Part shown: in pieces, positions 13,899-51,137 of the stretch
How positions within the stretch are numbered: position 1 is the stretch's first letter
Layout of the letters: each line of letters begins with the position of its first letter
Position numbers and translations under genes: made by a program
Source: Thermoplasmata archaeon
GTDB lineage: Archaea > Thermoplasmatota > Thermoplasmata > Halarchaeoplasmatales > Halarchaeoplasmataceae
NCBI GenBank assembly: GCA_003551675.1
Contig: PUNG01000152.1
Coordinates: 71,377-131,911 of the forward strand
Length of the DNA: 60,535 bases
Reading direction: 5' to 3'
The notes under the pieces: model-generated
The model's input: the letters and a program-made list of their open reading frames with translations, nothing else
What the model was told of the DNA's origin: nothing
The model's database searches: none

Positions 13899-14477
13899 AT
13901 GAAAAGGCTACCGGTTAGAAAAATAGAAGAAGACGAAGATGCCCAGATCATGGGGATACCACTTTATATATTGCTCATAGTTATCATAGCGGCGGTGTCC
14001 CTGGCAGCCATACTGGGATTTATGGTGACCACTGAGCCGAGCATAGATGAGATCAGGATACACGACGTGTATCATGGTGAACATGAAGATGTAGGTGATA
14101 TCTATGGATATCAGTCTAGTGTATATGTAGAAGATATAGATGAAGACTCAGGGATAGCCTATTATAGGGGATCTGAACGCCCGGATCCTGAAGATCCTGA
14201 TGGAACTTTATCACCGGCTGAAGGCTACGATACACATCTTGTGGTTACTATTTACAACGAAGAAGGAAGCCCCATGTCAGGTGTAGACGTAGAGGCCGAA
14301 GGAGCAGGAGTGAGTTCCGTAGGAACCACAAATGCTAGTGGGATGGTGGAACTATCATTGGACGGTTGCAGACTCCGCCGAAACCAAAACAACGCCCAGA
14401 TAACGGTAACGGGGACTTACGAAGGACTTATCGGCTCTGAATCCGTAAGAACCAACATATGGGTCCAAAGACCGTAG
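13899..14477 (+). CDS. Pilin-like/N-terminally anchored acidic protein with a carboxypeptidase-regulatory-like beta-sandwich C-terminus
   Basis: A charged leader is followed by a hydrophobic helix (EDEDAQIMGIPLYILLIVIIAAVSLAAILGFMV). The C-terminal motif VVTIYNEEGSPMSGVDVEA...TTNASGMVEL resembles CarboxypepD_reg-like domains. Confidence 0.6.
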   Translation: MKRLPVRKIEEDEDAQIMGIPLYILLIVIIAAVSLAAILGFMVTTEPSIDEIRIHDVYHGEHEDVGDIYGYQSSVYVEDIDEDSGIAYYRGSERPDPEDPDGTLSPAEGYDTHLVVTIYNEEGSPMSGVDVEAEGAGVSSVGTTNASGMVELSLDGCRLRRNQNNAQITVTGTYEGLIGSESVRTNIWVQRP

Positions 14478-14616
14478 GCCTATACGCACCCAACCCTCTT
14501 ATTTTTTATTTTGAAACTATCTACAAACCTCTTCCCAAAATCTTTAAGTATCACTCATGAGCCTATTATAGCTAAGAGTTATTGGGTACCCAAACGATAA
14601 TCAAAAGGTGGATATT

Positions 14617-17600
14617 ATGGAAGATGAAATGAAGAAGTACTTCAGCCCAGAAAGACGTATGGTATTCACCTTCATTGGTGTAACTTTAGCGGTCTCTTTT
14701 ATTGTCTTATCGCTTCTGACTCCTTTTTTGGCCAATGGAGGTATCTCTGAGCCATGTACATCACTTTCAACGAATGAAGATATAGATTCGCAAGAGGACG
14801 AGATAAAACATCTGACCTCCTGGGAACAGAGGACACAAGACGATTTTAAAGAAGGAGATCATACAAATTTAGATATGGATTCATCTCCTGGTGAAGTCAG
14901 GCTAGATTCATACCCCTATGTTATCGGTTCTGCCGAGATGCCTGAAAGCAGAGGGGACTGGAGTGGAGGAAATACGTATAAAACGGGGAGGACAGATTAT
15001 CAAGCGGACCGAGGAGGTACTATCAGGGAAGTCAATATGGCAACAGGGGACTTGGTATCTGATTTTGATTTCTTGGTCCTTAAACCAGGCGAAGGCGAAA
15101 ATGAATTTTGGGTGGACGAACCAGCGGGTTCAGAAACATTCCAACCCGAGGCAGAGGAGCATAACAAGTGGGATGGTCTAGAAATACCCATCGAACAAGG
15201 GGATTGGATCGGTTTGTACACTTACGGTACACTCACTGCAAGAGCTGAACCGGATGCTTCACACAGTTATTATAGTTATAACGGGAAGATCGGAGGTACA
15301 CCTCGAACCATGACTGAATATACTCAGTCATATCATCCAACAATGTCCGCGGAAGTGGAAACATATGAATTTGAAGGGACGCTGGAATCCGAAGTACATT
15401 ATGCGGGTCCCCATATGTATACCTGGGATGAAATAACATGGAGTGCCCAGGAACCAGAAGGATCGGAGTTGATCATCGAGATAAGTACTTCCGAAGATGG
15501 AAGCACCTGGTCCGAATGGGAGGTAGCTCAGAGAGGAGAGGATGTTCCAGGCGACGATAATCATCCTTATATACGGTACAGAGCCACCTTTACATCTGAA
15601 ACCGGAAAGGAGAGTCCGGTGTTAGACCGGATAAGTATGTATTACAGAGTGGGTGAATCCCCTCCTGATATCGTCCACGAGCCTCTGCATGAATGGCAGG
15701 GTTATGGACCTTATACCATCACTGCGGAGGTGACCAGCGATAGCCCCCTTGCGGATCCGCCTAAACTACATTACAACATCGATGGGGAAGAGGAACATGA
15801 ACGATATTTTGAGGCCGATTGGGGAGATCATTTTGAAATAGAGATAGAGGATCTGCCCCATTCAACAGAAGTTGCGTACTACATAGAAGCTGAGAATCAA
15901 GCGGGTATCAGCGAGAGTACCGACGAAGTAACCTTCAGTATAGATAAAGAACCTCCGGAAACTGAGGCAATACTATCAGGTGAAGAAGGCGAAGATGACT
16001 GGTTCATAAACGATGTTACAGTGGAGCTGGACGCTACAGACCTGTACTCTGGAGTAGGGTCTATACGGTATAGTTTCGACGGAGAGGGCTGGGAGGATTA
16101 TAACCGGCCGTTTCAGATAAGTGAGTCAGGGGTACATACCCTTTACTATTACTCTATCGATGGAGTAGGTAATCAAGAGGATGAAAATACCGTAGAGATC
16201 AAGGCAGATCTGGAACCTCCTATCATGGAAATAATCAAACCGGAACCTACCGGGGAAGACGATTGGTATTTAGAAGAGATAGACATACAGATAGTGACGG
16301 AAGACGAAACTTCAGGAGTAGATAGGGTCGAGTACCGCATGGATGATGGTGATTGGGAATCATACCAAAATCGTATCAGTTTAGATGAATCAGGGATATA
16401 CCTCATCGAGGTTCGTTGTTTTGATAACGCAGGGAATGTAAAAGAAGAAGATGCAGTCGAGATCAAAGTAGATCTAGATGATCCTTTGATCGAAACCGAA
16501 ATAATCGCGGAGGAAGGAAGAGATAATTGGTATGTGAGTGAGACCGAAGTAGAACTAGATGCCGAAGACGAAGTATCCTCTATATCTAATATTTTCTACA
16601 GGATCAACGATGAGCAAGAATGGATAGAGTATGACGAGGAGATAGTACTAGGTGATGGAATATATCTACTGGAGTATTACTGCATCAACGGTGCAGGTAG
16701 AGAATCCGAGATAGAAGTGGAAGAGATCAAAGTAGATACATCACCACCAGAACTTAAAATCGAGATGCCCTCGGGAACGGGATGGACTAATGAAGATGGC
16801 ACAGTGAGCGTAGAAACCAAGGATATCATATCGGGTGTGCGAGAGATTAGTTACACGTTGAACAGAACCAACGACGACTGGGAGAATACAACAACTCTTG
16901 AGTATGATGATAATCCCTCTGACGTGAATATTACATTTGACGTACCTCCACACCAACACAGAAGATCAGGTAGATGGGATATAATCGTTGAAGTCAAGGA
17001 TCTAGCAGGGAATATCAACTCTACAGAAATCTTAGATATGAGTCTAGAATATCTTGTAGATTTCGAGGAACCCCTTCTAGACACACCTAAGGCAAGTTCT
17101 ACAGTTTGGAGAAACGACCTCACGATCTCAGTGATGGCGCAATCTCACCACAGCGGTATAGAACGGGTGATTTTGGAATACGATGCAGGGGATGGATGGC
17201 GATCTGAAGATATGAGAGATGAAGGCGGGGAATACACGGCAACCATATCAGGCAGTGAAGTGGGATTCAGCGATGTAGAGTACCGAATAACGGTGACAGA
17301 TGGAGCTGGAAACGAAGTGACCATGGAGGACTCCAAGATCGCTGAAGTCGGCATCAATTGGTGGTACTTAAGTCCCATATTCATCGTGATCGTCCTCATA
17401 ATTGCTTTTGCGTACTGGAAGAAAAACAGGGAGGAGCACGAAAAGCTGATGCCGATGAAAGAATCTAAGCTCTCAAAATTGAGAGGCGACAGAGAAAAGA
17501 AATTAGAACAAATCAAAAGAGATAGATCTGAAAGAACGATGAGTGTATCCTCTACTTCCGAGGAAGATGCACCGCCTCCTCCAGGAGATGATGGAGCACA

Positions 17601-18333
17601 ACCTCCACCGCCACCGGCAGCGGTTTCAGGCACTTCTGAATCGTCGGGACAGGACTGCTGTATCTGTGAAAGTCCAACTGATTCTACTACTGGCTTGGAA
17701 TGTGATTGCGGAAATGTTTACCACGATGATTGCTTGATGGCCGAGAAAAACTGTCTAAGATGTGATAGGGATTATACCGATGTAATTGCTCTTTCGAAGG
17801 GTGAAGAATTAGAAGAGGAAGAGTTTGAAGAGGAAGTTGTATTTGAGTGCTACAGTTGCGGCTCGGAGATCAACGAGGAAGATGAATCCTGTGAAGCATG
17901 TGGAGTCGTTTTCGAGGATGAGTTAGAGGAAGAACAGGAGTCAGAGCAAGAGGTGGAGGAAGAGCAGGAGGAAGAACAGGAGTCAGAGGAAGTGCAGGAG
18001 TCAGAGCAAGAGGTGGAGGAAGAGCAGGAGGAAGAGCAGGAGCCAGAGGAAGAACAGGAGTTAGAGGAAGTGCAAGAGTCAGAGGAAGTGCAGGATTCAG
18101 AGGAAGAGCAGGAATTAGAGGAAGAGCAGGAGCCAGGGGAAGAACAGGAGTCAGAGGAAGAACAGGAATCAGAGATATGGGATGAAGGAACAAGTGAGGG
18201 ATCCGAAAAAGAGACGGAAAAAGCCGAGAAAAAAGCTGACGCCGGTGAAACGATAGTCTGTCCTCTGTGTAATAATAAAAACGAGCCAGGAACTGAAAGA
18301 TGTTGGGCGTGTCATAACGATCTTACTGAGTAA
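14617..18333 (+). CDS. Large two-pass membrane protein: extracellular Ig-like repeats, a cytoplasmic C4HC3 zinc finger, two zinc ribbons and a polyacidic repeat
   Basis: The ATG at 14617 has GGTG 6 nt upstream; the alternative in-frame GTG at 14608 (track start, 1241 aa) overlaps that GGTG. From 14617 the product is 1238 aa. TM1 is MVFTFIGVTLAVSFIVLSLL. Five tandem repeats of about 85-105 aa span 15943-17330, with the motif D..SG(V/I)..(I/V).Y...........(Y/I).......G.(H/Y).(L/I).(Y/V)...D.(A/V)GN. TM2 (WWYLSPIFIVIVLIIAFAYW) is at 17359-17418. The roughly 305-aa tail carries Cys motifs at 17656-17763, 17848-17901 and 18259-18312. Confidence 0.85.
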   Translation: MEDEMKKYFSPERRMVFTFIGVTLAVSFIVLSLLTPFLANGGISEPCTSLSTNEDIDSQEDEIKHLTSWEQRTQDDFKEGDHTNLDMDSSPGEVRLDSYPYVIGSAEMPESRGDWSGGNTYKTGRTDYQADRGGTIREVNMATGDLVSDFDFLVLKPGEGENEFWVDEPAGSETFQPEAEEHNKWDGLEIPIEQGDWIGLYTYGTLTARAEPDASHSYYSYNGKIGGTPRTMTEYTQSYHPTMSAEVETYEFEGTLESEVHYAGPHMYTWDEITWSAQEPEGSELIIEISTSEDGSTWSEWEVAQRGEDVPGDDNHPYIRYRATFTSETGKESPVLDRISMYYRVGESPPDIVHEPLHEWQGYGPYTITAEVTSDSPLADPPKLHYNIDGEEEHERYFEADWGDHFEIEIEDLPHSTEVAYYIEAENQAGISESTDEVTFSIDKEPPETEAILSGEEGEDDWFINDVTVELDATDLYSGVGSIRYSFDGEGWEDYNRPFQISESGVHTLYYYSIDGVGNQEDENTVEIKADLEPPIMEIIKPEPTGEDDWYLEEIDIQIVTEDETSGVDRVEYRMDDGDWESYQNRISLDESGIYLIEVRCFDNAGNVKEEDAVEIKVDLDDPLIETEIIAEEGRDNWYVSETEVELDAEDEVSSISNIFYRINDEQEWIEYDEEIVLGDGIYLLEYYCINGAGRESEIEVEEIKVDTSPPELKIEMPSGTGWTNEDGTVSVETKDIISGVREISYTLNRTNDDWENTTTLEYDDNPSDVNITFDVPPHQHRRSGRWDIIVEVKDLAGNINSTEILDMSLEYLVDFEEPLLDTPKASSTVWRNDLTISVMAQSHHSGIERVILEYDAGDGWRSEDMRDEGGEYTATISGSEVGFSDVEYRITVTDGAGNEVTMEDSKIAEVGINWWYLSPIFIVIVLIIAFAYWKKNREEHEKLMPMKESKLSKLRGDREKKLEQIKRDRSERTMSVSSTSEEDAPPPPGDDGAQPPPPPAAVSGTSESSGQDCCICESPTDSTTGLECDCGNVYHDDCLMAEKNCLRCDRDYTDVIALSKGEELEEEEFEEEVVFECYSCGSEINEEDESCEACGVVFEDELEEEQESEQEVEEEQEEEQESEEVQESEQEVEEEQEEEQEPEEEQELEEVQESEEVQDSEEEQELEEEQEPGEEQESEEEQESEIWDEGTSEGSEKETEKAEKKADAGETIVCPLCNNKNEPGTERCWACHNDLTE
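17917..18176 (+). repeat. In-frame acidic (E/Q/S/V) tandem repeat inside CDS 14617..18333
   Basis: 17941-18000 and 18001-18060 align with a 60-bp period and only a few mismatches. They are embedded in degenerate 18-bp units GAGGAAGNNCAGGAGNCA that encode EEEQESE-type peptides. Confidence 0.85.
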
Positions 18334-18353
18334 AACAAAGAGGAAGATAAGAT

Positions 18354-18860
18354 ATGAGAGAGTTAAAACGATCTGAAGATGGAGTGATGGATTATCCATT
18401 TAGACTATTGATCATATCCATCGTGCTGGTCATAGCTATACCAACGATGCTTTCGGCTTTATCTCACTACCGCACGAGGAGTGCAGAAGAGCAGCTCTCT
18501 CAAGAAGCGAACCAGATCGCATCGGCGGTGGAAAGTGTTTACATACAAGGTGTGAACGCAAGCACCAGTTTAGAAATAAATCTGCCTGAGGATACAGAGC
18601 ATTTGAAGGTTGGTGCTCCTCTATCTAGATCAGTTCATACTAGAGCTATTTATTATCAACTCAGGGGACAACCCGAGGACTCTATCCTTGTGACCCATGG
18701 TCTTCGAGGCATCCCTATGACTTCTCCACACAATGACACCCTTATAATACCCGAAGGCAGACACAGAATTTTGATGGTGAAAAGACAAGCAGACTTTGAT
18801 ATAACCGGTGATGGAGTCGCAGGCGATTACTTTGTTGAGATCGACGTGATGGAGTGGTAG
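18354..18860 (+). CDS. Pilin-like protein (putative class III signal peptide)
   Basis: The N-terminus MRELKRSEDGVMDYPFRLLIISIVLVIAIPTML is a short charged leader ending in G followed by a hydrophobic helix. The gene lies in the pilus-like locus, with its stop 1 nt before the next start. Confidence 0.65.
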   Translation: MRELKRSEDGVMDYPFRLLIISIVLVIAIPTMLSALSHYRTRSAEEQLSQEANQIASAVESVYIQGVNASTSLEINLPEDTEHLKVGAPLSRSVHTRAIYYQLRGQPEDSILVTHGLRGIPMTSPHNDTLIIPEGRHRILMVKRQADFDITGDGVAGDYFVEIDVMEW

Positions 18861-18861
18861 T

Positions 18862-19377
18862 ATGCTGGATTGGGCCCTCTCAAAGGTGTTTATATCTATA
18901 TTTACCATGGGCATAGTAGTTTTCTCTATATTCGTTTTTTCCGCTGCTAGAGATGATCTAGGAGAAACCCAGTTAGAGAATATATCCAAAGAAATATCTT
19001 CTCGAGTAAATGAACTGTCCAATACGTACTCTAACTCATCAGTTTACTTCACATTCAGAGAGAACGCTTCCGCTATCGAACTACCTTCGGACATGGATGG
19101 AGATGAATATGATATCCGGATCAGTTCTGACAGTGTTACTGTCCAGATGGATGGAAAACTGGCTTCTTCAGATATTCGCGCCGAAGATGCAAGCAGGGTT
19201 CACCTGTGGCACCCTGACAAAATAAATTATACTACGAATCAAACGGAATTAGAAGAACTCGATAACGAGAACAGGTTTTTAGATGTGGTTTCTGGAGAGG
19301 GATTCAGAGTGGTCAGGACAGAACTGATAGTTAACGGCGAGATCGAATACCACACCTTTATCTTTGAAGATTATTAG
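18862..19377 (+). CDS. N-terminally anchored small protein, paralog of CDS 44988..45515
   Basis: N-terminal TM is VFISIFTMGIVVFSIFVFSA. The blocks DGDEYDIRIS...VQMDG...VHLWHPD correspond to NGDPYDMEIT...LKQDG...IHLWEPG in the 175-aa protein at 44988. Confidence 0.65.
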   Translation: MLDWALSKVFISIFTMGIVVFSIFVFSAARDDLGETQLENISKEISSRVNELSNTYSNSSVYFTFRENASAIELPSDMDGDEYDIRISSDSVTVQMDGKLASSDIRAEDASRVHLWHPDKINYTTNQTELEELDNENRFLDVVSGEGFRVVRTELIVNGEIEYHTFIFEDY

Positions 19378-19436: not shown

Positions 19437-22400
19437 CTACTCTCTGAGGCAAAAAATGTTTTCGTAGATGTGATATTGATCAACATATGTTTTTTCTTCT
19501 TCATCATCCAACACGGTTCTACCTAATTCTGCTGTAAAGAAGTCCGCTTTTCTTCCGATCCCTATGGAAGGTTCTGCCGATGCCCACCAAGCAAAGTTTC
19601 CTCTGGTGTAGTTTCCTTCAGGACCTATTATTTCAAAAGAATAATTGTTCAACATGTTTTCATCGGTCCGTGTGAAAAGAGAGGGTGCGGGAGAATTAAT
19701 TCCTAGATTTCTACCCACGAAACGTATGTCGTTGATGAATAGTCTAACATACTCGATCATTTCGTTCTGAGTGGTACTGTTTGTCCAGTAGATGAAGCGC
19801 CTCTGCTGTAAGGAGGAATAAGATTCATTGACATGGAAATAGAAACCTATCTCATCCAGTTCTTGGAACAACTCAGGCTCTTTGTACAGTTCTTCATGCA
19901 TCTCTTTCAAAAGATCCTTGGTGAAATGAATAAAGCCATCATAAGAGTTGTTCTTGTCTTCCAAAGCAGCGGTGAACCAATCCTCCACTTCCACCGGTAG
20001 TTCTCCTCCTCTTGTTTTTATACCTACGTCTACAGAATGATTATAACCTAGGTTGGGAAGTTTGATATTGGTGAAATAGTCCTCTTCGACATCGTATAGA
20101 CTGATCTCATGGGCTGAGAGTCTCTCCGGAGGATAAAACAATTCAAAACTGAAATTATCCAGCGTTGTGTTTTTATATGCCTCTATCACTACGCGTTCAT
20201 CCCGGTTTGGATCGACTTCGATCTTTAGGTCAGTGTTTCCAAAACGTTGGGCGGTATAACTGAATTCCTCTTCACCCAGCTCAAACACGATCTCCGTCCG
20301 ATTACTTTTATAAGTCGGACTCAGTATATCTTCTTCAAGGTCGACACTTAGATCGAATCCCATGGAAGGATATTCAAACACGCTTTTTTCTACTCCGTCA
20401 GGTAGTGCCGTATCCAATATGTTGTTTTTTTCTTTCTCTATAAACTCAAAATAAGCGGTATCGTTGTAGGTATCATAATATATATTGTCTATGGTACTCA
20501 TCAAACTGGTCAGATCCGAACTGGTATGATCTGCATCGGCTAGAGCCGAGTGAGTACCTCCTCTTAGATGCGCACGGACGGAATTTAGAGTGTTAGTAGA
20601 CCTAGATAACACATCAGTTTTTGCCTGGGTTAGGTTCATCAAAGGTCTCGAAACATAGATGGCTTCTTCTTTCAAAGGTTTCCAAACATCTTTAGTGTAG
20701 TCTAGATCCAACGGTTCTTCCTCCTTTAACTCAAAATAACTCCTAGTCATCTGATAGTTCACATCATTGGTTAGCCAACCGGATTCAAGCGGCCAGGCGG
20801 TATGTATCGGCAGAGTGTAGTTGTAATCCAGTTCCAATGTTCCGTTGTACCAGGTTGATCTGTGGACGCCAACAGGTATGTTTCTGCGGGAAGTGGTGGT
20901 ATTGACCCCAAGAGTTCCCTGTATAGAAACATTAAGTGCTGTTTGAAATGAACTCCACGACATGTTAGTCCTCAATTCCGGTTCTTCCGCATATCTTCCC
21001 TGCACGTCCACGAAATGTTGACCCTTTTTTGGATATTCTATATCTATGGTGAGATTGTCTCCATCTTCTTCAAGATACTCGGAAAATTCAACATGGTAGG
21101 TTTCATTGAGGACTCTCTGCCGTTGCTCGTCGTAGGTGCGGTTGACACGCCAATTGTATCGCGGCTGGGTTGAGTCCGTGGCTAAAAAGAGCTCCTCTTG
21201 ATTGACATAAGTGTTCCTGTGTATGTCACGCAAAGTTGTTTCTTGTAGTTTATGCTGAAGCCAGCCGTTCTCCTGAGAGAGGTTCAACAGCATGTTCTCT
21301 CTCTCGTTCTCATGGCCGATGCTTCTCACAGCGATATGCTCTAAAACAAAATCATAAAAATTTCCTTCCCCCACGCGTTCTCCTTCGTATTCGCCCACAT
21401 CCGTGGTTTCGTCCATATCTTCTTTTAATTCCTGCGTGATCTGGTCTTCTGAAAGCAGACCATGTTCACCGACGACTTCTTCCGTGGCCTCTCGTATATC
21501 CTCCCATAGTCTGTCCCAGATGGCCTGATCGTGCCAGGTTGTCTGTGCATCAGTGGGGATTATCGAGTTTCTATAATTTAAGCACTGGGGGCAGGCCCAA
21601 CAAGGTTGTCCTATCGTGGTCTCCCAAGCTTCGTCTAAAAACGACTGTCTTCTTGGTATAGCTATATCTCTTACTCTTTGATTGACGTCTTTCATGGCAT
21701 CCTGGCGGAAAGAGAAAGTACCTTGGGAAGATTCGCCGTCACTGCGCTGCTCTTCTTCAGGTGGTTCTAACGAAACCGTTCCTTCAGGATTACCCTCCCT
21801 TTCCACTCCTCCGTCGTATAGGTTGACCACGGCTTCATACCAAAGGTCTACGGTCTCGCTGGTCAAGTGGTAAAGAAAATCATCTTCGTATTCTCTTTTA
21901 TAAGCACCTTCGCCCCACCATTCGTCCCTTTGATAAAAATCATCCGTTATCTCTTCAAATTCATTTATAGCTTCGTTGATGGGTCCTTCTTCTTCAGAGA
22001 TCATGTATTCAGTACCGTTCATCAACATGGATCTATTATCTTCTGGATCTATATCTATGTCGAATTCTTTCGTGCCAACCATCTCGGCCATATCATGACT
22101 TATGGTATCCATGAAACCTTTTTCTTCTACGTCATCGATATCTTCCGAACGCTGTCTTACACTGCGATTGATGGTTTCAAGTATATATTCTAGAGTGTCG
22201 TAGTAAGGCGTATTTCTTCCTTGATCGTACCTGGCGATGAAAGACTCCTGGACCAAATAATATTCTATGGATCTAGCAGGTACACTACTGAAATCATCAT
22301 CAAAGTGTAGAACATAAGTTTCAGGATCAAGGTCGTTGTTTTCAGGATCTCCGAGTATTAGGTCTATGGTATCAGGCACCTCGTCGGACTCCATCTCCCA

Positions 22401-23762
22401 ATTACCTTGCTGATGATTCGGACCCACACTGAACACCCAATAATGCCCTCCAACGGGTCGAGGAGGTTCTGTAGAATGACATTCCCATATGTAATCTGAT
22501 CCGTATTCTGTCGCCGAAGTTCTAGAATGCATTTTCCTTATCTCAGTACTAGCCTCCTGGGCGTCGAGACTTTCTGGTATGTCCAACCAGTCTCTGTACA
22601 CCTCCAACCAGGTCCTCACCTGCTTTTCGGCCCATTCCTCTCCCTTCTCTTCCATGGCCTCCCAGTCCACCACCGGTTCGGAGAGCGTAGGATCAACTAT
22701 CTCATCTCCCCAGAACAGTTCGTAGAGATCCAAAACAAAATCTTCGCCGAAGGGATAGATCGCTTGAGCCAAAACCTTCCCTGCATCGACTTCCTGCTCT
22801 TTTATGTTTTGGTACATCAGGAAAACGTCGGCTGCATCTATAGTGCCGTTTTTAGTGTAATTTTCGAGCATGGAATCCACGCCCATTTTCTCTGCAATAT
22901 CTTCATCGTAATCACCGTAAAGTCTAGAGGCTTCCAGCAGTAAAGCCAAGTTCACAGCTATCTCCACATCTTCTTTAGTCAACAAACTTTCTATATCCCC
23001 CTCGTTCTCCCCGTAACCACCGCTGGCGTTGCCGAAAAGAGTTCTGGTCTGGGTTATGGTAGATAACTGATATCTTATCAATTTGCCCACTTCACCAAAG
23101 GGATCCCGAGATTCTCCTTTGAACTCCTCGAATCGACCTTTCAAGTAAAAGATAGGAGAGTATACGTTCTCGTGGAATTCTTTGTTATAAGTCACGTTGT
23201 GTCCCGAGGCTTCGCTGTAAACCGACATCTTCAGTTCGCCCATAACTCTTCCATAGAGCGGGGTTTTCTGTTCTCCATAGGAGCTGCGGTTAGTATGATC
23301 CCCTTCCTCTAACGGAGAAGCTTGGAACGGTTCTATTGTTTCATCTTGAGGATAAAACTGATCGTTAGTTTGCTGCGTATCTCTCACGTCCGATACTATG
23401 CTTATGGACCAATCATCTAGGTAAACTATACTGTTCCTTGCTCTTGAGGGGTAGGTATTGTTGATATACTCCTCAAAAGATTCTTCCACAGTCGTTTGAA
23501 GCGTAGACATATCAGGGTCCCGCTCTTTGGTCAACCCATGTATCTCCTGGAGTACTAGATGATGTGCTCTCGTAGAGAGATCATTTTTTGCCTCTGCAGC
23601 AGCTTCAGAAGTCTGTCTATTGGGGTTGTATATAGAGACGTCTCTGCCCGATTCATCGATCTGTCCCACCATGGCAAAAGCTATGGTCGAAAGTAAAATT
23701 AGAACCACACCTATCAATGCAAAGGGTATCTTCCCACGGTCATCCATCATTATTTCTCGCAA
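19437..23762 (-). CDS. Giant (1441 aa) N-terminally anchored, probably extracellular glycoprotein of unknown function; paralog of CDS 45512..50905
   Basis: An uninterrupted 4.3-kb ORF. GAGGT lies about 6 nt upstream of the TTG at 23762, and there are ATGs at 23750 and 23747. The N-terminus is DDRGKIPFALIGVVLILLSTIAFAMV. Many N-x-S/T sequons are visible by eye. Two collinear blocks are shared with the 1797-aa protein: PIFYLKGRFEEFKGE / NFFLMAERMENFRLE and EIAVNLALLLEASRLYGDYDED / QAIVELALLLEQARVFRSYDEE. Confidence 0.85.
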   Translation of the reverse strand: MREIMMDDRGKIPFALIGVVLILLSTIAFAMVGQIDESGRDVSIYNPNRQTSEAAAEAKNDLSTRAHHLVLQEIHGLTKERDPDMSTLQTTVEESFEEYINNTYPSRARNSIVYLDDWSISIVSDVRDTQQTNDQFYPQDETIEPFQASPLEEGDHTNRSSYGEQKTPLYGRVMGELKMSVYSEASGHNVTYNKEFHENVYSPIFYLKGRFEEFKGESRDPFGEVGKLIRYQLSTITQTRTLFGNASGGYGENEGDIESLLTKEDVEIAVNLALLLEASRLYGDYDEDIAEKMGVDSMLENYTKNGTIDAADVFLMYQNIKEQEVDAGKVLAQAIYPFGEDFVLDLYELFWGDEIVDPTLSEPVVDWEAMEEKGEEWAEKQVRTWLEVYRDWLDIPESLDAQEASTEIRKMHSRTSATEYGSDYIWECHSTEPPRPVGGHYWVFSVGPNHQQGNWEMESDEVPDTIDLILGDPENNDLDPETYVLHFDDDFSSVPARSIEYYLVQESFIARYDQGRNTPYYDTLEYILETINRSVRQRSEDIDDVEEKGFMDTISHDMAEMVGTKEFDIDIDPEDNRSMLMNGTEYMISEEEGPINEAINEFEEITDDFYQRDEWWGEGAYKREYEDDFLYHLTSETVDLWYEAVVNLYDGGVEREGNPEGTVSLEPPEEEQRSDGESSQGTFSFRQDAMKDVNQRVRDIAIPRRQSFLDEAWETTIGQPCWACPQCLNYRNSIIPTDAQTTWHDQAIWDRLWEDIREATEEVVGEHGLLSEDQITQELKEDMDETTDVGEYEGERVGEGNFYDFVLEHIAVRSIGHENERENMLLNLSQENGWLQHKLQETTLRDIHRNTYVNQEELFLATDSTQPRYNWRVNRTYDEQRQRVLNETYHVEFSEYLEEDGDNLTIDIEYPKKGQHFVDVQGRYAEEPELRTNMSWSSFQTALNVSIQGTLGVNTTTSRRNIPVGVHRSTWYNGTLELDYNYTLPIHTAWPLESGWLTNDVNYQMTRSYFELKEEEPLDLDYTKDVWKPLKEEAIYVSRPLMNLTQAKTDVLSRSTNTLNSVRAHLRGGTHSALADADHTSSDLTSLMSTIDNIYYDTYNDTAYFEFIEKEKNNILDTALPDGVEKSVFEYPSMGFDLSVDLEEDILSPTYKSNRTEIVFELGEEEFSYTAQRFGNTDLKIEVDPNRDERVVIEAYKNTTLDNFSFELFYPPERLSAHEISLYDVEEDYFTNIKLPNLGYNHSVDVGIKTRGGELPVEVEDWFTAALEDKNNSYDGFIHFTKDLLKEMHEELYKEPELFQELDEIGFYFHVNESYSSLQQRRFIYWTNSTTQNEMIEYVRLFINDIRFVGRNLGINSPAPSLFTRTDENMLNNYSFEIIGPEGNYTRGNFAWWASAEPSIGIGRKADFFTAELGRTVLDDEEEKTYVDQYHIYENIFCLRE

Positions 23763-23829: not shown

Positions 23830-24360
23830 TCAGGCTAACCAGATCCTCAGATTGGCGGTATAGGTTTTGTTATCGTCTGGCGTATGAAGTTCTTGAGACG
23901 CTGAGAAAACCTCTTCTCTACCCTCAACTGGCTGACCAAAGTTGAAAGAAGCGTTACCAGAAGACCAGGCGGTGAAGTTAAAATCATATTGAGGATGGAT
24001 CAATCGTTGTAAGGATTCGTTGAGAGGGCTCTCTATACCTTCTATTAAACTCTTGTTCTCCACATCGGTATTATCTCTCAGATATAGATTTTCAACGATC
24101 AGTTCCGAGGTCGTTTTATCGTCTAAGTGGATAGTTTCGTTCTCGTATTCATAAGAAGTGCGGCTCAGTGTCGAATGTAGGAATGAATCCAATGTACTTT
24201 CCCCGTAAACTCTCATGGATTCCTTTGCTTCTGGTGAGCTAGAAGGGAAGGAAACAAAGGCTAAGATCAAAGACCCTATCATCGCGATGCTGAAGAAGAT
24301 AAGCGCGTCTATTAAACTAGACTGTCCTTCATCTGAACGGGTCAATCTATTCATCTCCAC
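23830..24360 (-). CDS. Pilin-like protein with a class III signal peptide-like N-terminus
   Basis: MEMNRLTRSDEG|QSSLIDALIFFSIAMIGSLILAFV is a charged leader with a G-Q junction followed by a hydrophobic helix. The gene overlaps the upstream gene by 10 nt. Confidence 0.7.
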   Translation of the reverse strand: MEMNRLTRSDEGQSSLIDALIFFSIAMIGSLILAFVSFPSSSPEAKESMRVYGESTLDSFLHSTLSRTSYEYENETIHLDDKTTSELIVENLYLRDNTDVENKSLIEGIESPLNESLQRLIHPQYDFNFTAWSSGNASFNFGQPVEGREEVFSASQELHTPDDNKTYTANLRIWLA

Positions 24361-24839
24361 ACCTCCACTCTCATCCTAGCAGTGTGTACCTCGTTGGTAT
24401 CTACGACTATATTTACTGAAAGATAGATCACTTTCCTTCCTTCCTGGTAGTCCTCCGCGGTGAAATTGTGTTCTGGTTCTCTCGACCAAGTTTGGTTGTA
24501 TCTGACGGAGTAATTGCTCACATCGGTGATCTCGACTCGATAAAAGAAGTCTGGATAATTTAAAGACCGTGTAAGGTTTTCAGATTCGAGCCCTTGGATC
24601 TTCGTGGCATCGAATCGACCCACTTCGCCTTCGTGGAGAAGTAGAGGTGAGGATCTAACGGCGTCGGCGAACTCTAAAGCTTCTCTTTCAAAATCTGAGA
24701 TAGATGTTTTTTGCTCGTGTCTGCCTATAGCTGAATATATGCTAGCTAAAAATATCACGGTAGCTACTACGACTATAAGAAGGGCAGGAACGTCTTCGTA
24801 AAAACCCACGACACCTTTGTCGTCCATTTTTCTTTTCAT
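24351..24839 (-). CDS. Pilin-like protein (start trimmed to ATG at 24839)
   Basis: From M94 of the track ORF the sequence reads MKRKMDDKGVVGFYEDVPALLIVVVATVIFLASIY, a charged leader plus a hydrophobic helix. The upstream 93 codons overlap cyanophycinase on the opposite strand and look non-coding. A TATA-like CTTTTATATG lies about 24 nt upstream (24858-24867, minus strand). Confidence 0.65.
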   Translation of the reverse strand: MKRKMDDKGVVGFYEDVPALLIVVVATVIFLASIYSAIGRHEQKTSISDFEREALEFADAVRSSPLLLHEGEVGRFDATKIQGLESENLTRSLNYPDFFYRVEITDVSNYSVRYNQTWSREPEHNFTAEDYQEGRKVIYLSVNIVVDTNEVHTARMRVEVWR

Positions 24840-44987: not shown

Positions 44988-45515
44988 ATGAACATGATAC
45001 AATGGTTGCAGTCAAAGATAGTCCTCATAGCTGTTGTAGTAATCATGATATCCTCAGTAACTACCTTTTTTTATTATCAGATAGGTGAACTCGAAGAACA
45101 GGAGTTGGAGGGCAGAGGTCGAAAACTTTCTCGGATAATAACCGATATGCAAAATTCGGGAGTGGATGAGATGAGCCAGAGAGTGACTTTTCACGAGGAA
45201 AATGACGGAATATATCTCTCTCCAGAGGTGAATGGGGATCCGTATGACATGGAGATAACTACCGGCTATTTGAGGTTGAAACAGGACGGTACAGAAAAGA
45301 TCATACCTTTGAACACCAATATTCACCTATGGGAACCCGGGATGATGAACCATACGGGTTATCTGAGTCCAGAAGAGATGGAATGGCGTGATGGAAGAGA
45401 ATCATCTCTTGAATTACGGGCGGGAGATGTGGGTCTCAAGCTGATTTCACTACGATTATATGATGGCAGTGCTCATGAGAACCACATATTTATCAGGGAG
45501 GTGCCCTCTAGTTGA
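44988..45515 (+). CDS. N-terminally anchored small protein, paralog of CDS 18862..19377
   Basis: The N-terminal TM is IVLIAVVVIMISSVTTFFYY. It shares blocks with the 171-aa protein (see 18862). Its stop overlaps the start of the giant gene by 4 nt. Confidence 0.7.
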   Translation: MNMIQWLQSKIVLIAVVVIMISSVTTFFYYQIGELEEQELEGRGRKLSRIITDMQNSGVDEMSQRVTFHEENDGIYLSPEVNGDPYDMEITTGYLRLKQDGTEKIIPLNTNIHLWEPGMMNHTGYLSPEEMEWRDGRESSLELRAGDVGLKLISLRLYDGSAHENHIFIREVPSS

Positions 45516-48500
45516 GAGGCTTTTTCGACCTTGCGGAGGATGAAAATGCAGTTATGGTTTTCGTGTTAGTAGGTGTGGTTCTACTGATACTGTCGTTTTT
45601 GGCAGGGGTCCTTTTTGCTAGGATCCAACTAGATGCACAGAGAGAAATCTCGGACACCGCTGATCTAAAAGAAGTTGATGGAGAATTTGAGAAGATCAAG
45701 AGAGAGCTAGAGAGTGCGGCCTGGGAATCGGGATTGAAAGCCGTGGAAAAAGTTAGAGAAGACGTATCCAAGAGTGGCGACGGCTACACTCTCGCCGAGC
45801 TCCAATCGAAGGTAGGAACTAATACCACACGGATATTTGAAAACTATTTCCGAGAAAATCACGAAGGCATCTCTCAGGTGGGTGGATACGAAGCAAGTTT
45901 TCATCTGAGACCTATACCTGATGGATGTCCAGACATAGAGATGATCCCACTGTATATCAGGGAGCAGAGAGGCGAAGAGTTAAGATGGGAAGAGATACCC
46001 GGATTTTTTAGAGTGAGCAGGACTGTCCATGTTGATCTAAGGAATGAAATAACCGACACATTTTCCAGCAGAAAGATGACCATAAGTAGGACGGTGGAGA
46101 CCAACTTTTTTCTGATGGCCGAGAGGATGGAAAACTTCAGGTTGGAGAGGATAAGAAAATCTGTGGATCTGATGAGTTCAGCCTATTTACATGCAAAGAT
46201 ATTTGATAGCAGTGGTTTGAGTGAATTCGAGGTCGAAGGTGATTGGTTTGAAGTCTCTTTTGAAGATCATTTCAACACGAATTGGCTAGAGGAGTACGAC
46301 GGCGTATCTGGAGGGTTTGGAAGTCACTATGTAGATACCAGGGAAGATCAGGGAGATATTTTTTTGGGGTATGAACGGGACATAGGGCCTGTTAGTGCTC
46401 ATGAACTTATCGACGAAGACGAGATCCAAGCCATCGTTGAATTAGCACTTCTATTAGAACAGGCACGGGTGTTCCGTTCCTATGATGAAGAACTGCTGGA
46501 TCGAACTGCAGACAGTTTTGGAGTAGAACAGGATACGCTGTTGGGATATCTAGGGGACGGTGTGGAGAACAAAGTGAATCTTGAAGCGTTGATAATCCGG
46601 CTATTTCAAGATAGGGGTACGCTATCAAAAGATATGTTTTACCCTGGTCCTTTTTTGAACAGAACGTTAGAAGGTGATCTTTTAAGTATAATAGATGATA
46701 ACGAAGATTGGGTTAACACTACTTTCGGTATGATGAAAAGGTTGTTTGAAGGTGAGTTGTTAGGTGAAGGTAACAGATGGGAGTTCCAAGACCTTTCTGA
46801 GAACGTGACACATCCTTCTGACATATCGGCTGAAAAAAGCTACTTGCGAACTTTGATAAGTCTCTATTCGAACAACGTAGATGTGATCTTTGAAAGTTTT
46901 AAAGTCGATGAACTAGAAGTAAAAGAATATGTTGAAGATGAGATCCAAAATCTTGGTCCTCTGCCTTGGATGGAGAACAAAAAGATGATAGGTCCTGAAG
47001 GTGTAGATAAAATCACAGCCTCAATACTTCACACCGCTAAGAATCTTTCCGTCTCTTTAGGATTTCAGGATTCATCTTCTACTGAAGGCGCTACTCCTTT
47101 CTATTACACATTTTTTCTTTCGGACTGGGGTTTTGACGAACCCTTTGAGGGGAAGCTCGATACTGAAAAAAGACTGAACACCTATAATATGCAGAGGGTG
47201 ATCGAAGGTAAAATAAGTAACGAGATCGAAACCAGGAAGGACACCTTTGAGGACAAGGCTGAAAGTGAATTCGAGATGATCCAAGATTTGGTGAAGAACT
47301 ACAACCGGACTTTAAAAGAAGGGGGCAAGGAAGACCACCCTGGATGGAGAGAGGTGTGGGACGATCTCAATAGTACTCTAGAAGTAGTAAAAAATCTTTC
47401 TAGCAATGAACTCTTTGAAGAAGGTGAAGAGGGCAACATCACGTCTGTGTTGGACGAAAACTACTCCTTATTGAAGAAGCTAGAGGGAGATATCGATGGA
47501 GAAATAAGCGAATGGAACAGTGATATCGAGGATCATACACGGAACATAATACAGATACAGAAAAATTTTACCAAGAACGAGTGGACTTACGAAGTGTATA
47601 GTTATTTGGATGATGAGTTGGATGAAAAAAGTGGTAAGGAGGTTTTGGGTCTGATCGATGATTTTTTGAAAGCCCCTTCCTGCGAGTTGACGGAAAGGTT
47701 CGACTGGACATTAGAAAATTACTATGTGCATGAAGATATAACTATACCTCCCGAAGATCCTAAAGAGTCCGTAGGGCACGCCACTCTCGGTAATTTCACC
47801 GAGCATCTCAAAAGGGATTTTCTTCTTCCCTTGGATTACTCAAATCTATACGATCTTTTTAGGCGCATAAATATAAATTTATTTGACTTATCATCTCCTC
47901 GTGATGGTGAAGAAGAGGAAAGCTTGAGCAGGTTATGGTCCATACTTTTGGGCAGGGGGGACCCTTTTTCAGAACATCTTTCTGGTATCGAGTCCGTTAT
48001 GGACTCTCTGGTCATCGAAGACGATGATATACATTCTGACCAACTTTCAGAGATAGATACCTGGTTCATCGAAGACAGTTTTACTCGCTCTATAGAAAAG
48101 TTAGAAGGAGTAAAAGAAGAATTGAGAGAAAAGTCCCATGAACTGTTGAAAGAAGATCTTGATGAGAACGCATACGAAGGATATGCGGATGCGAGTTTTT
48201 ACCGAACGGCAGAGATGTTTTTAGAGAACATGATCAACGATATGGAAGGGCACGTTGCAAGTATCGTCGAAAAACAGAAAAGGTCGGGATATCTTTTTGA
48301 AAATGGAGGTGAGATAAGGAGTCTTCCGGTTTGTGCACTTCCTCTAGGGGGATTGACCGTATGGAACAATCGGTCGATAGAATACGGCTCTTCGTTCACT
48401 TTGGAACTTGAAGTTCATCTTGAAAGTGAGCATGATCTGATAGATATCCAAGAACGATCAGAAACCACTATCAGGGAATACCTCGGAGAAGTAAATTCTA

Positions 48501-50905
48501 CGAAGGAATGGGTAAACCCCTTTTCAAAAGAGTACAAAGATCACTACCGCACCAATATATTTGTTGAATTTAACACGTCCGAGATGGACTTAAGGTTGAA
48601 AACAGGAGATAGTAAGCTGTTCACTTTTGAGAAATATTCTTCAGAGGAGGTTCGACGAACTTATAGCGCTGGAAACCACCGTGGAGTGATGGAAGTTCTG
48701 ACACCTATGCCCCTTCTTGATAGGGATTACAAACCGTCATCCTTGGTTGACCACGAGATACGGGGTGCGTCTTTTGAACGGAACGTTTTCAATGTCTCGG
48801 AAAATAGGGTAGAACTGTCCTTGGATATTTGGGTGAGTGATGATGAACAAACTTTTACCGTAGAAGTCCTAAAAGAAGGCAGAGGAAGGAGGGTCGTCCC
48901 CAATCAATGGGGAAGATACAATCATTACTCAAATCTGAGAGAAGAAGATGAAAATCCTGTGATTCTATTCAGTGAAAGCGTTGAGGTAAAAGGAGGTACC
49001 CATGAAGATACGGAGCTTTCATTTGAGCTGGACACGGATAAATTTTTCAAGGAGGAATATAAAGAAAAACATCTTATAATCAGAGTGAAACCAGATATAG
49101 TGATGAATAGGATGCAAGATGAACAGGCTCTTGAACAGAAATATAGCGAGTCTTTTTCATCCCATGTTCCTTCTTTCACGTCTACTGAACAAGTTTTTTT
49201 AGTCAGTGATAAAGAGGCGTACATAGGTGTTTTCAGGATGGATAACGAAGCTAAAGGTGAATTTGATCTGGTAACGGGTCTACCTGAAAACAGTTGGGTG
49301 ATAGAAAAGGATGGGATTCCTTTCATGATCGATTTAGAAGAGGTCATGGAGTACAGTAAAATCATATCTGGTAGGTATGGTCCTGCATCTACTTTGGAAA
49401 AGGCCAATATCCCTGTAGAAGCGGTTGTAGATGCAGGTGCGTCTGAAACCAAGATAACCCGTTTGCCAGAAAGTTGGTACCGTCTTGTGCTGGAAGATCC
49501 TTTTTCTCTAGTATTCATGGGCGCCCATGGCGAAAAAAATCATCTTTATCCAACAAGAGTGCTACCCTCATTGGAAGGGAAAGAACTCAACGAGGATATG
49601 TGGAGATCCTTTCAAAAATCGGCAGAATCCAAAGGCAGTTTGATAGGAAACGAGGCATACATATCTCTTCCCTCTCTGTTCCATACCACCGGAGCTAGAT
49701 ACATGGAGGGGGATGAGATCATGAAGGATCCAGGCGCAGGAACGAGTGGATATTTTTACTATGACCTCGAATCTCATAATTCTCCTGGGAGGATAGAACA
49801 GACCTATCGAGCGGTCGAAGATCTGGGAGAGATCTTAGCTAAATTAGAGGTAACTAGGGATAAAATAACGGCTCCATATGGTATGGGTGAGAAGAGCGAT
49901 GTGTTGAGAGAGACGGGGCTTTTCGAAGAGTTTTTAAGGACCGACCCTACCAAGAGGGAAGAACTGTTTTTGGCGGCTTGCAGAGCGCGAGATGAGATGG
50001 GTAGAGTTGAAGAGTTGAAAGACAGGTATCCTGCGTTCAGCAAAGGTTCGATAGCGCTGAGTCTGGACATTTTGGGGGAAGATCTAACTGAGCAGGCACT
50101 GAGTTGGTTTGAAGAAGAGGATTATAACGAGCCGGTGAAGGAGCTAAGGGCTTTTCTTTCTTTCGATGGAACCTTTTTGAAAGAACTCCCCGAGAAGCTC
50201 GGCGAAGGAGACATGAGCTACAAGGAGGCGATAGGGGAACTGAGCGAGCAAATAGACATGGATTTCATGGACGCTAGGTCGTGGGGCGTCGAAGATCTTG
50301 ATGACGTTCATTCTTTAGATCATCTGCTCGATAATTTTAAAAAGGATTCTATAAGCACCTCGGTATCTCATGGATTGAGACCGAGCGCTTTGGATCGATC
50401 AGAATACGAGATAGATATCGACGAGTTTTCCAAGGACTTGGACGAACTTTCATCTTCAAGGTATTTCGTTGAATTCGTTCAGGAGATGAACTCAGGGAAC
50501 TATGAAAACCTCCCTTCCTTTTACTTCGCAGCTCGTGTCGAAGACTCCGAAGTTACTTGGATGCCCTTCGGAGATAAAGGTGCGCCCCTTCTCATAGAAG
50601 ATCGTATAGGATATTACTACATGAGTATGGCAGAGAACGTTTCAGGAGATGAACTTCGACAATTCATAAATCACACCATCACCGACTCTATTCAAGACAT
50701 GGAGGAGTCAAAAGACGGCTATGCACATAGGGAACGAGCTCTCATAATAATCGATGGAAGATTTGAACTGGAAGATGAGCAAAAAATCGAGCTTAAAAGA
50801 CACATCAAAAAAGTAACAGAGAGTCACTGCCCTCACCATCACATCGTAGGGGCTGTGGAATTGAGGAGCGAGGGTGAGCACGAGTTAAGATACGTTCATC
50901 TGTAG
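45512..50905 (+). CDS. Giant (1797 aa) N-terminally anchored protein of unknown function, paralog of CDS 19437..23762
   Basis: An uninterrupted 5.4-kb ORF whose TTG start overlaps the upstream stop. The N-terminus is DLAEDENAVMVFVLVGVVLLILSFLAGVLF. It has conserved N-terminal blocks collinear with the 1441-aa protein and a divergent, highly acidic remainder. Confidence 0.85.
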   Translation: MRGFFDLAEDENAVMVFVLVGVVLLILSFLAGVLFARIQLDAQREISDTADLKEVDGEFEKIKRELESAAWESGLKAVEKVREDVSKSGDGYTLAELQSKVGTNTTRIFENYFRENHEGISQVGGYEASFHLRPIPDGCPDIEMIPLYIREQRGEELRWEEIPGFFRVSRTVHVDLRNEITDTFSSRKMTISRTVETNFFLMAERMENFRLERIRKSVDLMSSAYLHAKIFDSSGLSEFEVEGDWFEVSFEDHFNTNWLEEYDGVSGGFGSHYVDTREDQGDIFLGYERDIGPVSAHELIDEDEIQAIVELALLLEQARVFRSYDEELLDRTADSFGVEQDTLLGYLGDGVENKVNLEALIIRLFQDRGTLSKDMFYPGPFLNRTLEGDLLSIIDDNEDWVNTTFGMMKRLFEGELLGEGNRWEFQDLSENVTHPSDISAEKSYLRTLISLYSNNVDVIFESFKVDELEVKEYVEDEIQNLGPLPWMENKKMIGPEGVDKITASILHTAKNLSVSLGFQDSSSTEGATPFYYTFFLSDWGFDEPFEGKLDTEKRLNTYNMQRVIEGKISNEIETRKDTFEDKAESEFEMIQDLVKNYNRTLKEGGKEDHPGWREVWDDLNSTLEVVKNLSSNELFEEGEEGNITSVLDENYSLLKKLEGDIDGEISEWNSDIEDHTRNIIQIQKNFTKNEWTYEVYSYLDDELDEKSGKEVLGLIDDFLKAPSCELTERFDWTLENYYVHEDITIPPEDPKESVGHATLGNFTEHLKRDFLLPLDYSNLYDLFRRININLFDLSSPRDGEEEESLSRLWSILLGRGDPFSEHLSGIESVMDSLVIEDDDIHSDQLSEIDTWFIEDSFTRSIEKLEGVKEELREKSHELLKEDLDENAYEGYADASFYRTAEMFLENMINDMEGHVASIVEKQKRSGYLFENGGEIRSLPVCALPLGGLTVWNNRSIEYGSSFTLELEVHLESEHDLIDIQERSETTIREYLGEVNSTKEWVNPFSKEYKDHYRTNIFVEFNTSEMDLRLKTGDSKLFTFEKYSSEEVRRTYSAGNHRGVMEVLTPMPLLDRDYKPSSLVDHEIRGASFERNVFNVSENRVELSLDIWVSDDEQTFTVEVLKEGRGRRVVPNQWGRYNHYSNLREEDENPVILFSESVEVKGGTHEDTELSFELDTDKFFKEEYKEKHLIIRVKPDIVMNRMQDEQALEQKYSESFSSHVPSFTSTEQVFLVSDKEAYIGVFRMDNEAKGEFDLVTGLPENSWVIEKDGIPFMIDLEEVMEYSKIISGRYGPASTLEKANIPVEAVVDAGASETKITRLPESWYRLVLEDPFSLVFMGAHGEKNHLYPTRVLPSLEGKELNEDMWRSFQKSAESKGSLIGNEAYISLPSLFHTTGARYMEGDEIMKDPGAGTSGYFYYDLESHNSPGRIEQTYRAVEDLGEILAKLEVTRDKITAPYGMGEKSDVLRETGLFEEFLRTDPTKREELFLAACRARDEMGRVEELKDRYPAFSKGSIALSLDILGEDLTEQALSWFEEEDYNEPVKELRAFLSFDGTFLKELPEKLGEGDMSYKEAIGELSEQIDMDFMDARSWGVEDLDDVHSLDHLLDNFKKDSISTSVSHGLRPSALDRSEYEIDIDEFSKDLDELSSSRYFVEFVQEMNSGNYENLPSFYFAARVEDSEVTWMPFGDKGAPLLIEDRIGYYYMSMAENVSGDELRQFINHTITDSIQDMEESKDGYAHRERALIIIDGRFELEDEQKIELKRHIKKVTESHCPHHHIVGAVELRSEGEHELRYVHL

Positions 50906-50930
50906 TCAGAGATTCTAACTACCCTCTTTT

Positions 50931-51068
50931 CATAAAAAATATAGCGGACGTCGTCGAATGCTAACGCACTCACCTTGCCCACTAATTTTCATAAAAAATA
51001 TAGCGGACGTCGTCGAATGCTAACGCACTCACCTTGCCCACTAATTTTCATAAAAAATATAGCGGACG
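50931..51068. repeat. 59-bp tandem direct repeat (2 full copies plus a 20-nt partial copy) running into the 3' end of tRNA-Arg
   Basis: CATAAAAAATATAGCGGACG starts at 50931, 50990 and 51049. The first two copies appear identical over the full 59 bp. The third diverges after 51068, which is 6 nt inside the tRNA (the tRNA 3' end is at 51063). Confidence 0.9.
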
Positions 51069-51137
51069 CGACGGGATTCGAACCCGTGATGTCTGCCTTA
51101 GAAGGGCAGCGCCATGTCCGAGCTAGGCCACGCGCCC
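51063..51137 (-). tRNA. tRNA-Arg(TCT) carrying a G3:U70 wobble pair
   Basis: Manual fold of the minus strand. Acceptor GGGCGCG/CGCGTCC, where pair 3-70 is G-T; T8 G9; D arm GCC(T)...GGC with GG in the loop. Anticodon stem CTGCC/GGCAG with loop CT-TCT-AA; variable loop ACATC. T arm ACGGG-TTCGAAT-CCCGT; discriminator G. Total length 75 nt. Confidence 0.85.

Follow-up and report, generated by a model that had tools for sequence, protein, structure and literature searches.

Two paralogous sets of pilin-like genes and giant proteins in a haloalkaliphilic member of the Thermoplasmatota

The subject of this analysis is a stretch of 60,535 nucleotides (nt) from the genome of a Thermoplasmata archaeon (GenBank assembly GCA_003551675.1, contig PUNG01000152.1, positions 71,377 to 131,911 of the forward strand), which is called the window below and to which all positions refer unless a locus of another genome is named (prefix L). 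Two of its genes encode very large proteins, giant A and giant B, which are ancient paralogues. They share an N-terminal domain (N-domain) of about 350 amino acids (aa), and both are encoded next to small proteins. A giant together with the small proteins b, c, d and e forms a gene set that recurs across the Thermoplasmatota, and every protein of this set has exactly one predicted transmembrane (TM) helix, located at the N-terminus. The window holds one complete copy of the set and one reduced copy. The gene sets most likely belong to a type IV pilus machinery. The case is a real and fairly ordinary paralogy of surface-filament genes and not a rapidly diversifying cassette; the giants form an uncharacterised family, and their N-domain lacks a relative among solved structures.

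The organism is an uncultured haloalkaliphilic member of the Thermoplasmatota, which is related to Candidatus Natronoplasma. The metagenome-assembled genomes in which homologues were found are labelled Candidatus Natronoplasma sp., Thermoplasmatota or Thermoplasmata, and a protein identical to giant A is present on JGI contigs from soda-lake sediment.

Giants A and B and the small proteins c and c'

Giant A (45512..50905, + strand) consists of 1797 aa, starts with TTG and contains 18 NxS/T sequons. Giant B (19437..23762, - strand) consists of 1441 aa including 29 such sequons, and both giants are probably glycosylated surface proteins. In a pairwise BLASTP comparison of the two giants, only aa 262-378 of A and 243-337 of B (E 2e-4) and the TM segment were aligned. 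An hhalign comparison of the orthologue profiles (15 sequences for giant A, 13 for giant B) extended this to residues 6-351 of A and 3-306 of B (probability 97.7%, E 1.3e-12), so that the similarity covers about 300 columns outside the TM segment. Two collinear N-terminal blocks, which the first-pass annotation had picked out from the letters alone, both lie inside this alignment. For the C-terminal 1100-1400 aa the hhalign probability was below 1% and no similarity was detectable, as the same annotation had suspected. On these sequence comparisons, the giants are homologous in a domain formed by their N-terminal 350 aa or so and unrelated in the remainder.

The N-domain corresponds to 45512..46650 (+ strand, approximately aa 1-380) in giant A and to approximately 22743-23762 in giant B. 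In giant A it comprises a prepilin-like N-terminus (ENA↓VMVF, the arrow marking the putative cleavage site), a long helix, a five-stranded sheet and a helical part with the motif LALLLE, which is kept in nearly all members of the giant family. An AlphaFold2 (AF2) model of the N-domain of giant A, built from 29 sequences, has a predicted local distance difference test score (pLDDT) of 74 and shows a helix from residue 11 to 88, a second helix, the five-stranded sheet and the helical LALLLE part. Residues 235-291 form a low-confidence stretch; in the alignment of the N-domains the A-type rows carry extra residues here and the B-type rows are gapped.

The small protein c' (44988..45515, + strand, 175 aa) is encoded directly upstream of giant A and has one N-terminal TM helix but no prepilin-type leader. 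Its paralogue c (18862..19377, + strand, 171 aa) is encoded at the end of the + strand pilus operon, in convergent orientation to giant B. The two proteins align from end to end (BLASTP E 4e-15, 26% identity, 174 columns), with the three matching blocks that had been proposed before all in register, and each is the sole match of the other among the 45 open reading frames (ORFs) of the window (all-vs-all BLAST, E 2e-9). Orthologues of c' are 39-68% identical and are located immediately upstream of the orthologues of giant A. The position of c is kept in L002, L009 and L010. The AF2 model of c' (pLDDT 88) consists of an N-terminal helix (residues 3-55) followed by a beta-sheet. A profile of the c family, searched against a set of 5.8 billion proteins, matched just 13 close relatives and gave no annotated link to haloarchaea.

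The duplication that separates the giants is old. For giant A, 14 full-length orthologues were found at 33-56% identity and 100% coverage, and for giant B full-length orthologues exist at 43-69% identity. The mean pairwise identity per 100 residues ranges from 0.28 to 0.53 along A and from 0.33 to 0.77 along B, and among orthologues the N-domain is slightly more conserved than the remainder of the protein. At protein identities of 33-69%, the orthologues are too far apart for a meaningful dN/dS. A and B are 18% identical in the common domain. In an average-linkage clustering of 128 N-domains, the deepest split has the A-type proteins (25) on one side and all the rest, B among them (102), on the other. 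To the left of the remote module, i.e., of c' and giant A, a UDP-glucose dehydrogenase and an MscS channel are encoded, and this flank shows synteny with L001 and L043, where the giants are only 44-54% identical. Giants A and B are therefore ancient paralogues, as they stand on opposite sides of the deepest split of their family, share 18% identity and have full-length syntenic orthologues. A recent duplication, as the first-pass annotation might imply, does not agree with these data, and neither does its hypervariable remainder, since full-length orthologues exist and identity is roughly even along their length.

The survey of paralogues that had been suggested alongside gave a wider picture. 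Among 1.84 billion representatives, 392 clusters matched the N-domain profile at E <= 1e-3. In all of the 150 matches listed the aligned region is N-terminal, and the matching proteins are mostly 1100-2700 aa long; shorter ones are probably fragments. Across this family the C-terminal parts differ, some of them carrying GH25, PKD, Big_5 or lamin-tail domains. The idea of a conserved handle with a variable head is thus correct at the scale of the whole family, but within the orthologues of A and within those of B the C-terminal parts are stable.

Distant homologues of giant B (P0022-P0024) carry a GH25 muramidase domain (E 1.1e-51), and in L003 a neighbouring 1342-aa protein (14795-18823) contains an Amidase_6 domain. 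If archaeal surface proteins bear peptidoglycan hydrolases, this would suggest an action on bacteria.

The recurring gene set and the pilus-like locus

Two small genes, which had been missed in the first-pass annotation, are cotranscribed with giant B on the - strand. Gene d (23830..24360, - strand, 176 aa, prepilin-like N-terminus DEG↓QSS) immediately precedes giant B in their common operon. Gene e (24351..24839, - strand, 162 aa, also with a prepilin-like N-terminus) overlaps the start of d by 10 nt with its 3' end. It starts at M94 of an over-extended 255-aa ORF (24351-25118); a 162-aa protein of L002 is 75% identical to it, with an alignment beginning at residue 94 of that ORF and a tblastn match at 24839-24354. 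On the opposite strand, c is preceded by gene b (18354..18860, + strand, 168 aa, prepilin-like N-terminus EDG↓VMDYPF), whose product is a distant relative of e.

The small ORFs of the orthologous contigs were compared all-vs-all by BLAST. The relationships among the small proteins are taken from these un-iterated comparisons, as iterated profiles of a, b and e merged. Paralogues of d and e adjoin the orthologues of giant A in other genomes. In L001, L004 and L005, with giants 35-44% identical to A, the genes are arranged as c'→A←d'←e', and b' lies close by. In the loci with giant-A orthologues d' is paralogous to d (E 8e-5 to 4e-3) and e' to e (E 1e-11 to 1e-12), and near the giant-A modules of L004 and L005 b' is paralogous to b (E 9e-10). 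The conserved unit has the order e→d→giant←c(←b). Where a two-gene module had been proposed before, the conserved unit therefore comprises b, c, d, e and a giant.

For the distribution of the set, one genome per species was scanned with the B-type N-domain alignment as query, which yielded 37 loci; profiles of a to e were then mapped onto their ORFs. The 37-locus set is skewed to B-like giants because of the single peptide pattern used by the B-type alignment. Almost all loci carry Thermoplasmatota labels, among them Thermoplasmata, DHVE2, Methanomassiliicoccales, Ca. Saliniplasma and Ca. Haladaptatiplasma. The arrangement e→d→giant is present at giant B of the window and in 12 loci (L002, L008-L013, L015, L019, L020, L027 and L030). 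At about 21 places, namely the two modules of the window and 19 other loci, the giant has a c-type gene next to it or nearby. These c-type genes include a longer form of 270-317 aa, which is convergent on giants of about 2000 aa.

This longer form belongs to a third type of module in halophilic Thermoplasmatota, in which a giant of about 2000 aa is followed by the convergent long c-type gene. It was seen in L010 (20059-20946), L025, L026, L031, L032, L034 and L037-L041. The extra half of the long c-type protein resembles a second c domain and has a second HLW-type motif in the alignment. In L010 a B-type module and a long c-type gene are located on one contig, and some genomes may hold three paralogous sets.

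The remote module of the window, c' and giant A, is a reduced copy of the four- to five-gene set, because d', e' and b' are kept beside giant A in more distant relatives and are missing in the window. They are likewise missing beside giant A in L043, the closest relative (54% identity), and tblastn found no remnants of them anywhere in the window. The stop codon of c' and the start codon of giant A overlap by 4 nt (TTGA), with a Shine-Dalgarno-like motif GGAGGTG about 8 nt upstream, and the 4-nt overlap is kept at the orthologous loci L004, L005 and L043. The genes of c and giant B converge with a gap of 59 bp. Both arrangements had been read correctly before.

Giant A is immediately followed by 2.4 copies of a perfect 59-bp tandem repeat (50927-51068), and the final, incomplete copy overlaps the 3' end of a - strand gene for tRNA-Arg(TCT) (51062-51137). 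L044, a sister contig from the same population, has one repeat copy fewer. The repeat occupies the site where relatives have the d' and e' genes, and it may mark a past rearrangement or an integration site.

Giant B and its small genes are encoded inside a pilus-like locus, as had been claimed before and as two of its genes confirm. The first one (9933..11759, + strand) encodes a TadA/FlaI-type secretion ATPase of 608 aa with a long N-terminal extension. It matches Pfam T2SSE (E 3.8e-16, residues 261-453 of 608), and its best NCBIfam matches are TadA and FlaI, both below the equivalog cut-offs. The second one (11761..13785, + strand) begins 2 nt past the ATPase stop codon and encodes a TadC-like platform protein of 674 aa from a single gene, with 9 predicted TM segments. 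Its match to Pfam T2SSF is weak (E 7.3e-5, 23.2 bits at a cut-off of 25.2), and it matches the TadC genes of L002 and L003 in phmmer searches.

Downstream of TadC on the + strand follow a, a gene for a 1241-aa protein, b and c, on which the - strand operon of e, d and giant B converges. Gene a (13899..14477, + strand), the first gene after TadC, encodes 192 aa, of which the N-terminus is prepilin-like (EDA↓QIMG) and the C-terminal part Ig-like. An orthologue of a takes the same position in L002, and it is a candidate filament subunit. The 1241-aa protein (14608..18333, + strand) is very acidic and N-terminally anchored, contains Ig-like domains (Big_13, Pfam E 1.1e-8) and looks adhesin-like from its sequence; orthologues or paralogues are present in L002, L009 and L010. 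The layout of the main locus is kept in L002, L009 and L010, and in this halophilic clade the B set is located inside the cluster of ATPase/TadC operon genes.

Several neighbours of the locus were recorded. Directly upstream of the ATPase, a 209-aa soluble protein with 8 cysteines in a zinc-ribbon-like CxxC pattern is encoded (9259-9888, + strand), which has no family match and might act on the ATPase as a regulator. An extremely acidic secreted protein of 480 aa (26% D+E) with three CARDB domains is encoded some 2.5 kb ahead of the pilus locus (5956-7398, + strand), and a related CARDB protein adjoins the giant-A module in L001 (16846-17421). Beside the pilus locus, a cyanophycin synthetase (25809-28541, - strand) is located back to back with an S51 cyanophycinase-type peptidase (24988-25806, + strand), and such a pair is found in the same place in L002. 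Cyanophycin metabolism seems unusual for an archaeon. Finally, a full-length heliorhodopsin of 253 aa (33926-34687, - strand; Pfam E 1.9e-104) is encoded in this genome of a soda-lake member of the Thermoplasmatota.

Prepilin-like N-termini and possible functions

The class III (prepilin) signal has G, A or S at -1, a charged residue at -2 and its processing site ahead of the hydrophobic domain (PMC4371748). The first 75 residues of 128 giants were aligned for this feature. Just before the hydrophobic helix, 116 of 119 sequences have G or A at -1, and 119 of 128 have F at +4. By a test of the motif, giant B (DRG↓KIPF), b, d and e agree with the class III signal, and the pattern [KRDE][GAS] directly ahead of the hydrophobic domain is found in 11 of 12 a, 19 of 20 b, 12 of 16 d and 15 of 16 e sequences. 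On sequence, the giants and a, b, d and e look like carriers of prepilin-like N-termini. Protein c has a pilin-like layout without the leader: its N-terminus M-L-D-W-x-x-S-K is followed by the helix straight away, and the leader motif occurs in just 3 of 22 c sequences. In their models, the layouts of c' and of the giant N-domain resemble those of pilins, but Foldseek against PDB gave no significant match for either. The two copies probably share one export or assembly route, as had been supposed, given the prepilin-like N-termini and the location of one copy in a TadA/TadC locus.

We consider it somewhat probable that the two sets are alternative pilin-like accessory or tip sets serving one Tad-like machine, with the N-domain as adaptor and the C-terminal part as functional head. 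Proteins a, b, d, e and the giants would be inserted by the Sec pathway and cut by a prepilin peptidase just before the hydrophobic helix. On the TadC platform, the cleaved proteins would join with the uncleaved pilin-like c in a priming or tip complex, which would hold the giant at the end of the filament or along it. The conserved 350-aa N-domain would dock as an adaptor into the pilin-like set, and the unrelated C-terminal 1100-1400 aa would be the functional part, either adhesive or enzymatic. In this way one machine would have two heads at its disposal, one from each set, and c' and giant A would use b, d and e and the ATPase/TadC pair of the main locus in trans. A more far-reaching version is a tentative one: the giants may be undescribed, very large (1400-2700 aa) 'mega-pilins' with class III signals, spread across the Thermoplasmatota, whose 350-aa adaptor plugs interchangeable heads (adhesive or enzymatic, including the GH25 muramidase) into a four-protein tip complex, with one Tad-like machine displaying the alternatives.

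Several points weigh against the assignment to a pilus machine. At -2, K or R is found in only about 40% of the giants, and giant A itself has an uncharged N at this position (ENA↓VMVF), which is atypical for substrates of archaeal prepilin peptidases. No gene for a prepilin peptidase (PibD/FlaK) was seen among the window ORFs scanned. The structure prediction that the first-pass annotation had suggested for the N-domain returned the long helix followed by a sheet, but Foldseek found no significant PDB match for it (best E 0.18), and for the c' model the search against PDB gave no pilin and nothing significant. The DUF matches which could tie the giants and the small proteins to haloarchaeal pil loci, detailed below, are sub-threshold or limited to the first 46 residues. 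Many giants of the family have neither ATPase/TadC genes within 10 kb nor recognisable b-e neighbours, and therefore the link to a pilus is direct only in some clades. That c' and giant A are expressed and use the machine of the main locus is our proposal.

Alternatively, the giants would be N-terminally anchored envelope proteins, e.g., a surface coat, a matrix or adhesins, held by an uncleaved signal-anchor and forming no filament. The small proteins would then be membrane partners or assembly factors, and the adjacency to pilus genes in the halophilic clade would reflect a co-regulation of surface functions instead of a common assembly. In favour of this explanation are the loci of the wider family, most of which lack an ATPase or TadC within 10 kb, as well as the missing structural match to a pilin for both models, the often uncharged -2 residue and the complete absence of a leader in c. 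However, a near-invariant G or A at a fixed distance ahead of the helix is unexpected for a plain signal-anchor, four different small partners share the same kind of N-terminus, and in several genomes the complete set is interleaved with TadC-operon genes. Moreover, archaeal pilin genes are commonly located away from their own ATPase/TadC (PMC4858521). The envelope explanation is regarded as unlikely, although it is the main rival and deserves more weight than the ones that follow.

A second alternative, which we hold to be improbable, is a pseudopilus similar to type II secretion that releases or presents the giants as cargo or enzymes, for instance as cell-wall hydrolases directed against neighbouring bacteria, with the N-domain as recognition handle. 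The GH25 muramidase of distant family members and the Amidase_6 neighbour in L003 would fit such a role. Against it, domain searches recognised no enzyme domain in either giant of the window, and the giants bear a hydrophobic N-terminus themselves, which makes them subunit-like rather than soluble cargo.

The earlier picture of a recently duplicated two-gene cassette, whose C-termini diversify fast under pressure from hosts or partners, was built on a common N-domain with unrelated C-terminal regions, and this observation stands. It is very improbable nevertheless, given full-length orthologues at 33-69% identity that is even along the length, the position of A and B in the two deepest branches and the conserved synteny of the remote module. 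Finally, chance or low-complexity matches between hydrophobic N-termini, for which only the short TM match in the pairwise BLASTP of the giants could be cited, are ruled out for practical purposes by the full-length E-value of the small pair, the profile-profile alignment reaching far beyond the TM segment and the conserved LALLLE motif.

Comparison with known systems

In Pfam, NCBIfam and PDB sequence searches with both giants and all small proteins, only sub-threshold DUF matches were obtained for these proteins. Giant B matches Pfam DUF7286 with 25.5 bits at profile positions 1-46 of 1000 (cut-off 27 bits); its N-terminal 400 aa alone reach 29.5 bits, which still cover just 47 profile positions of 1000. 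Giant A gave no match to DUF7286, no other Pfam domain and no PDB sequence match. Protein c matches DUF7266 with 20.4 bits (E 4.4e-4) and c' with 15.5 bits (E 0.015), both under the cut-off of 27.6 bits, e has a faint match to DUF7287 (E 0.2), and b matches DUF7311 below threshold. As these matches are weak, the proteins are not assigned to DUF7286, DUF7266, DUF7287 or DUF7311. The four families, which we take to be built mainly from haloarchaeal proteins, are themselves uncharacterised, and a literature search on their names found no mention of them. This weak likeness hints that the same set may exist in other archaeal lineages.

Few archaeal type IV filament loci have a known function, and the large adhesin-like genes in them are unstudied. 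The present case supplies a defined recurring gene set, b, c, d and e with a giant, and a diagnostic N-domain with about 390 clusters, which so far maps to the Thermoplasmatota. The complete and the reduced set in one genome offer a natural comparison, and the set could guide work on the priming of archaeal filaments and the carriage of adhesins.

A comparable grouping is known from bacteria in the minor-pilin tip or priming complexes, i.e., FimU-PilVWX with PilY1 of type IVa pili, GspHIJK of type II secretion and the modular pilins of Streptococcus sanguinis. As in these complexes, about four small pilin-like proteins are combined with one very large surface protein, for which a role in adhesion at the tip is proposed. 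The window proteins have no sequence similarity and no detectable structural similarity to them. Furthermore, unlike PilY1, the giant itself has a prepilin-like N-terminus, and the giants (1400-2700 aa) are far larger than the known modular pilins.

The closest known system is that of the euryarchaeal type IV pilus loci of ATPase clade 2, or 'System 2', including the PilB4-type loci of H. volcanii with their own pilin set. In clade 2, the pilin sets evolve separately from the ATPase/TadC modules, undergo duplication and divergence, and often supply their pilins in trans (Makarova, Koonin and Albers 2016; PMC4858521). 'System 2' loci are described as having one platform gene, ATPases whose N-terminus is extended and several pilins, among them pilin-like proteins without the class III signal peptide (SPIII) motif; many of these loci also hold large adhesin-like proteins (Sivabalasarma and Albers 2026; bioRxiv 10.64898/2026.04.22.720090).

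Each of these features has its counterpart in the main locus of the window. It has the N-terminal extension of the ATPase, the single-gene TadC, several small proteins with class III-like signals, the leaderless pilin-like protein c and large adhesin-like proteins in the locus; the ATPase is likened by its features. The remote module fits the pattern of a pilin set in trans. There are differences as well. Neither the small proteins nor the giants reach the threshold of a named arCOG or Pfam pilin family. The 350-aa N-domain of the giants and the arrangement e-d-giant-c are likewise absent from the available parts of the clade 2 and System 2 descriptions. In the pil locus of Aciduliprofundum, as given in Table S4 of Makarova and colleagues, a 1720-aa arCOG01917 protein is located beside the ATPase; its membership in the giant family could not be established from that source. 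The case alone leaves current views unchanged, and it agrees with the published picture, in which pilin sets undergo duplication and can work in trans.

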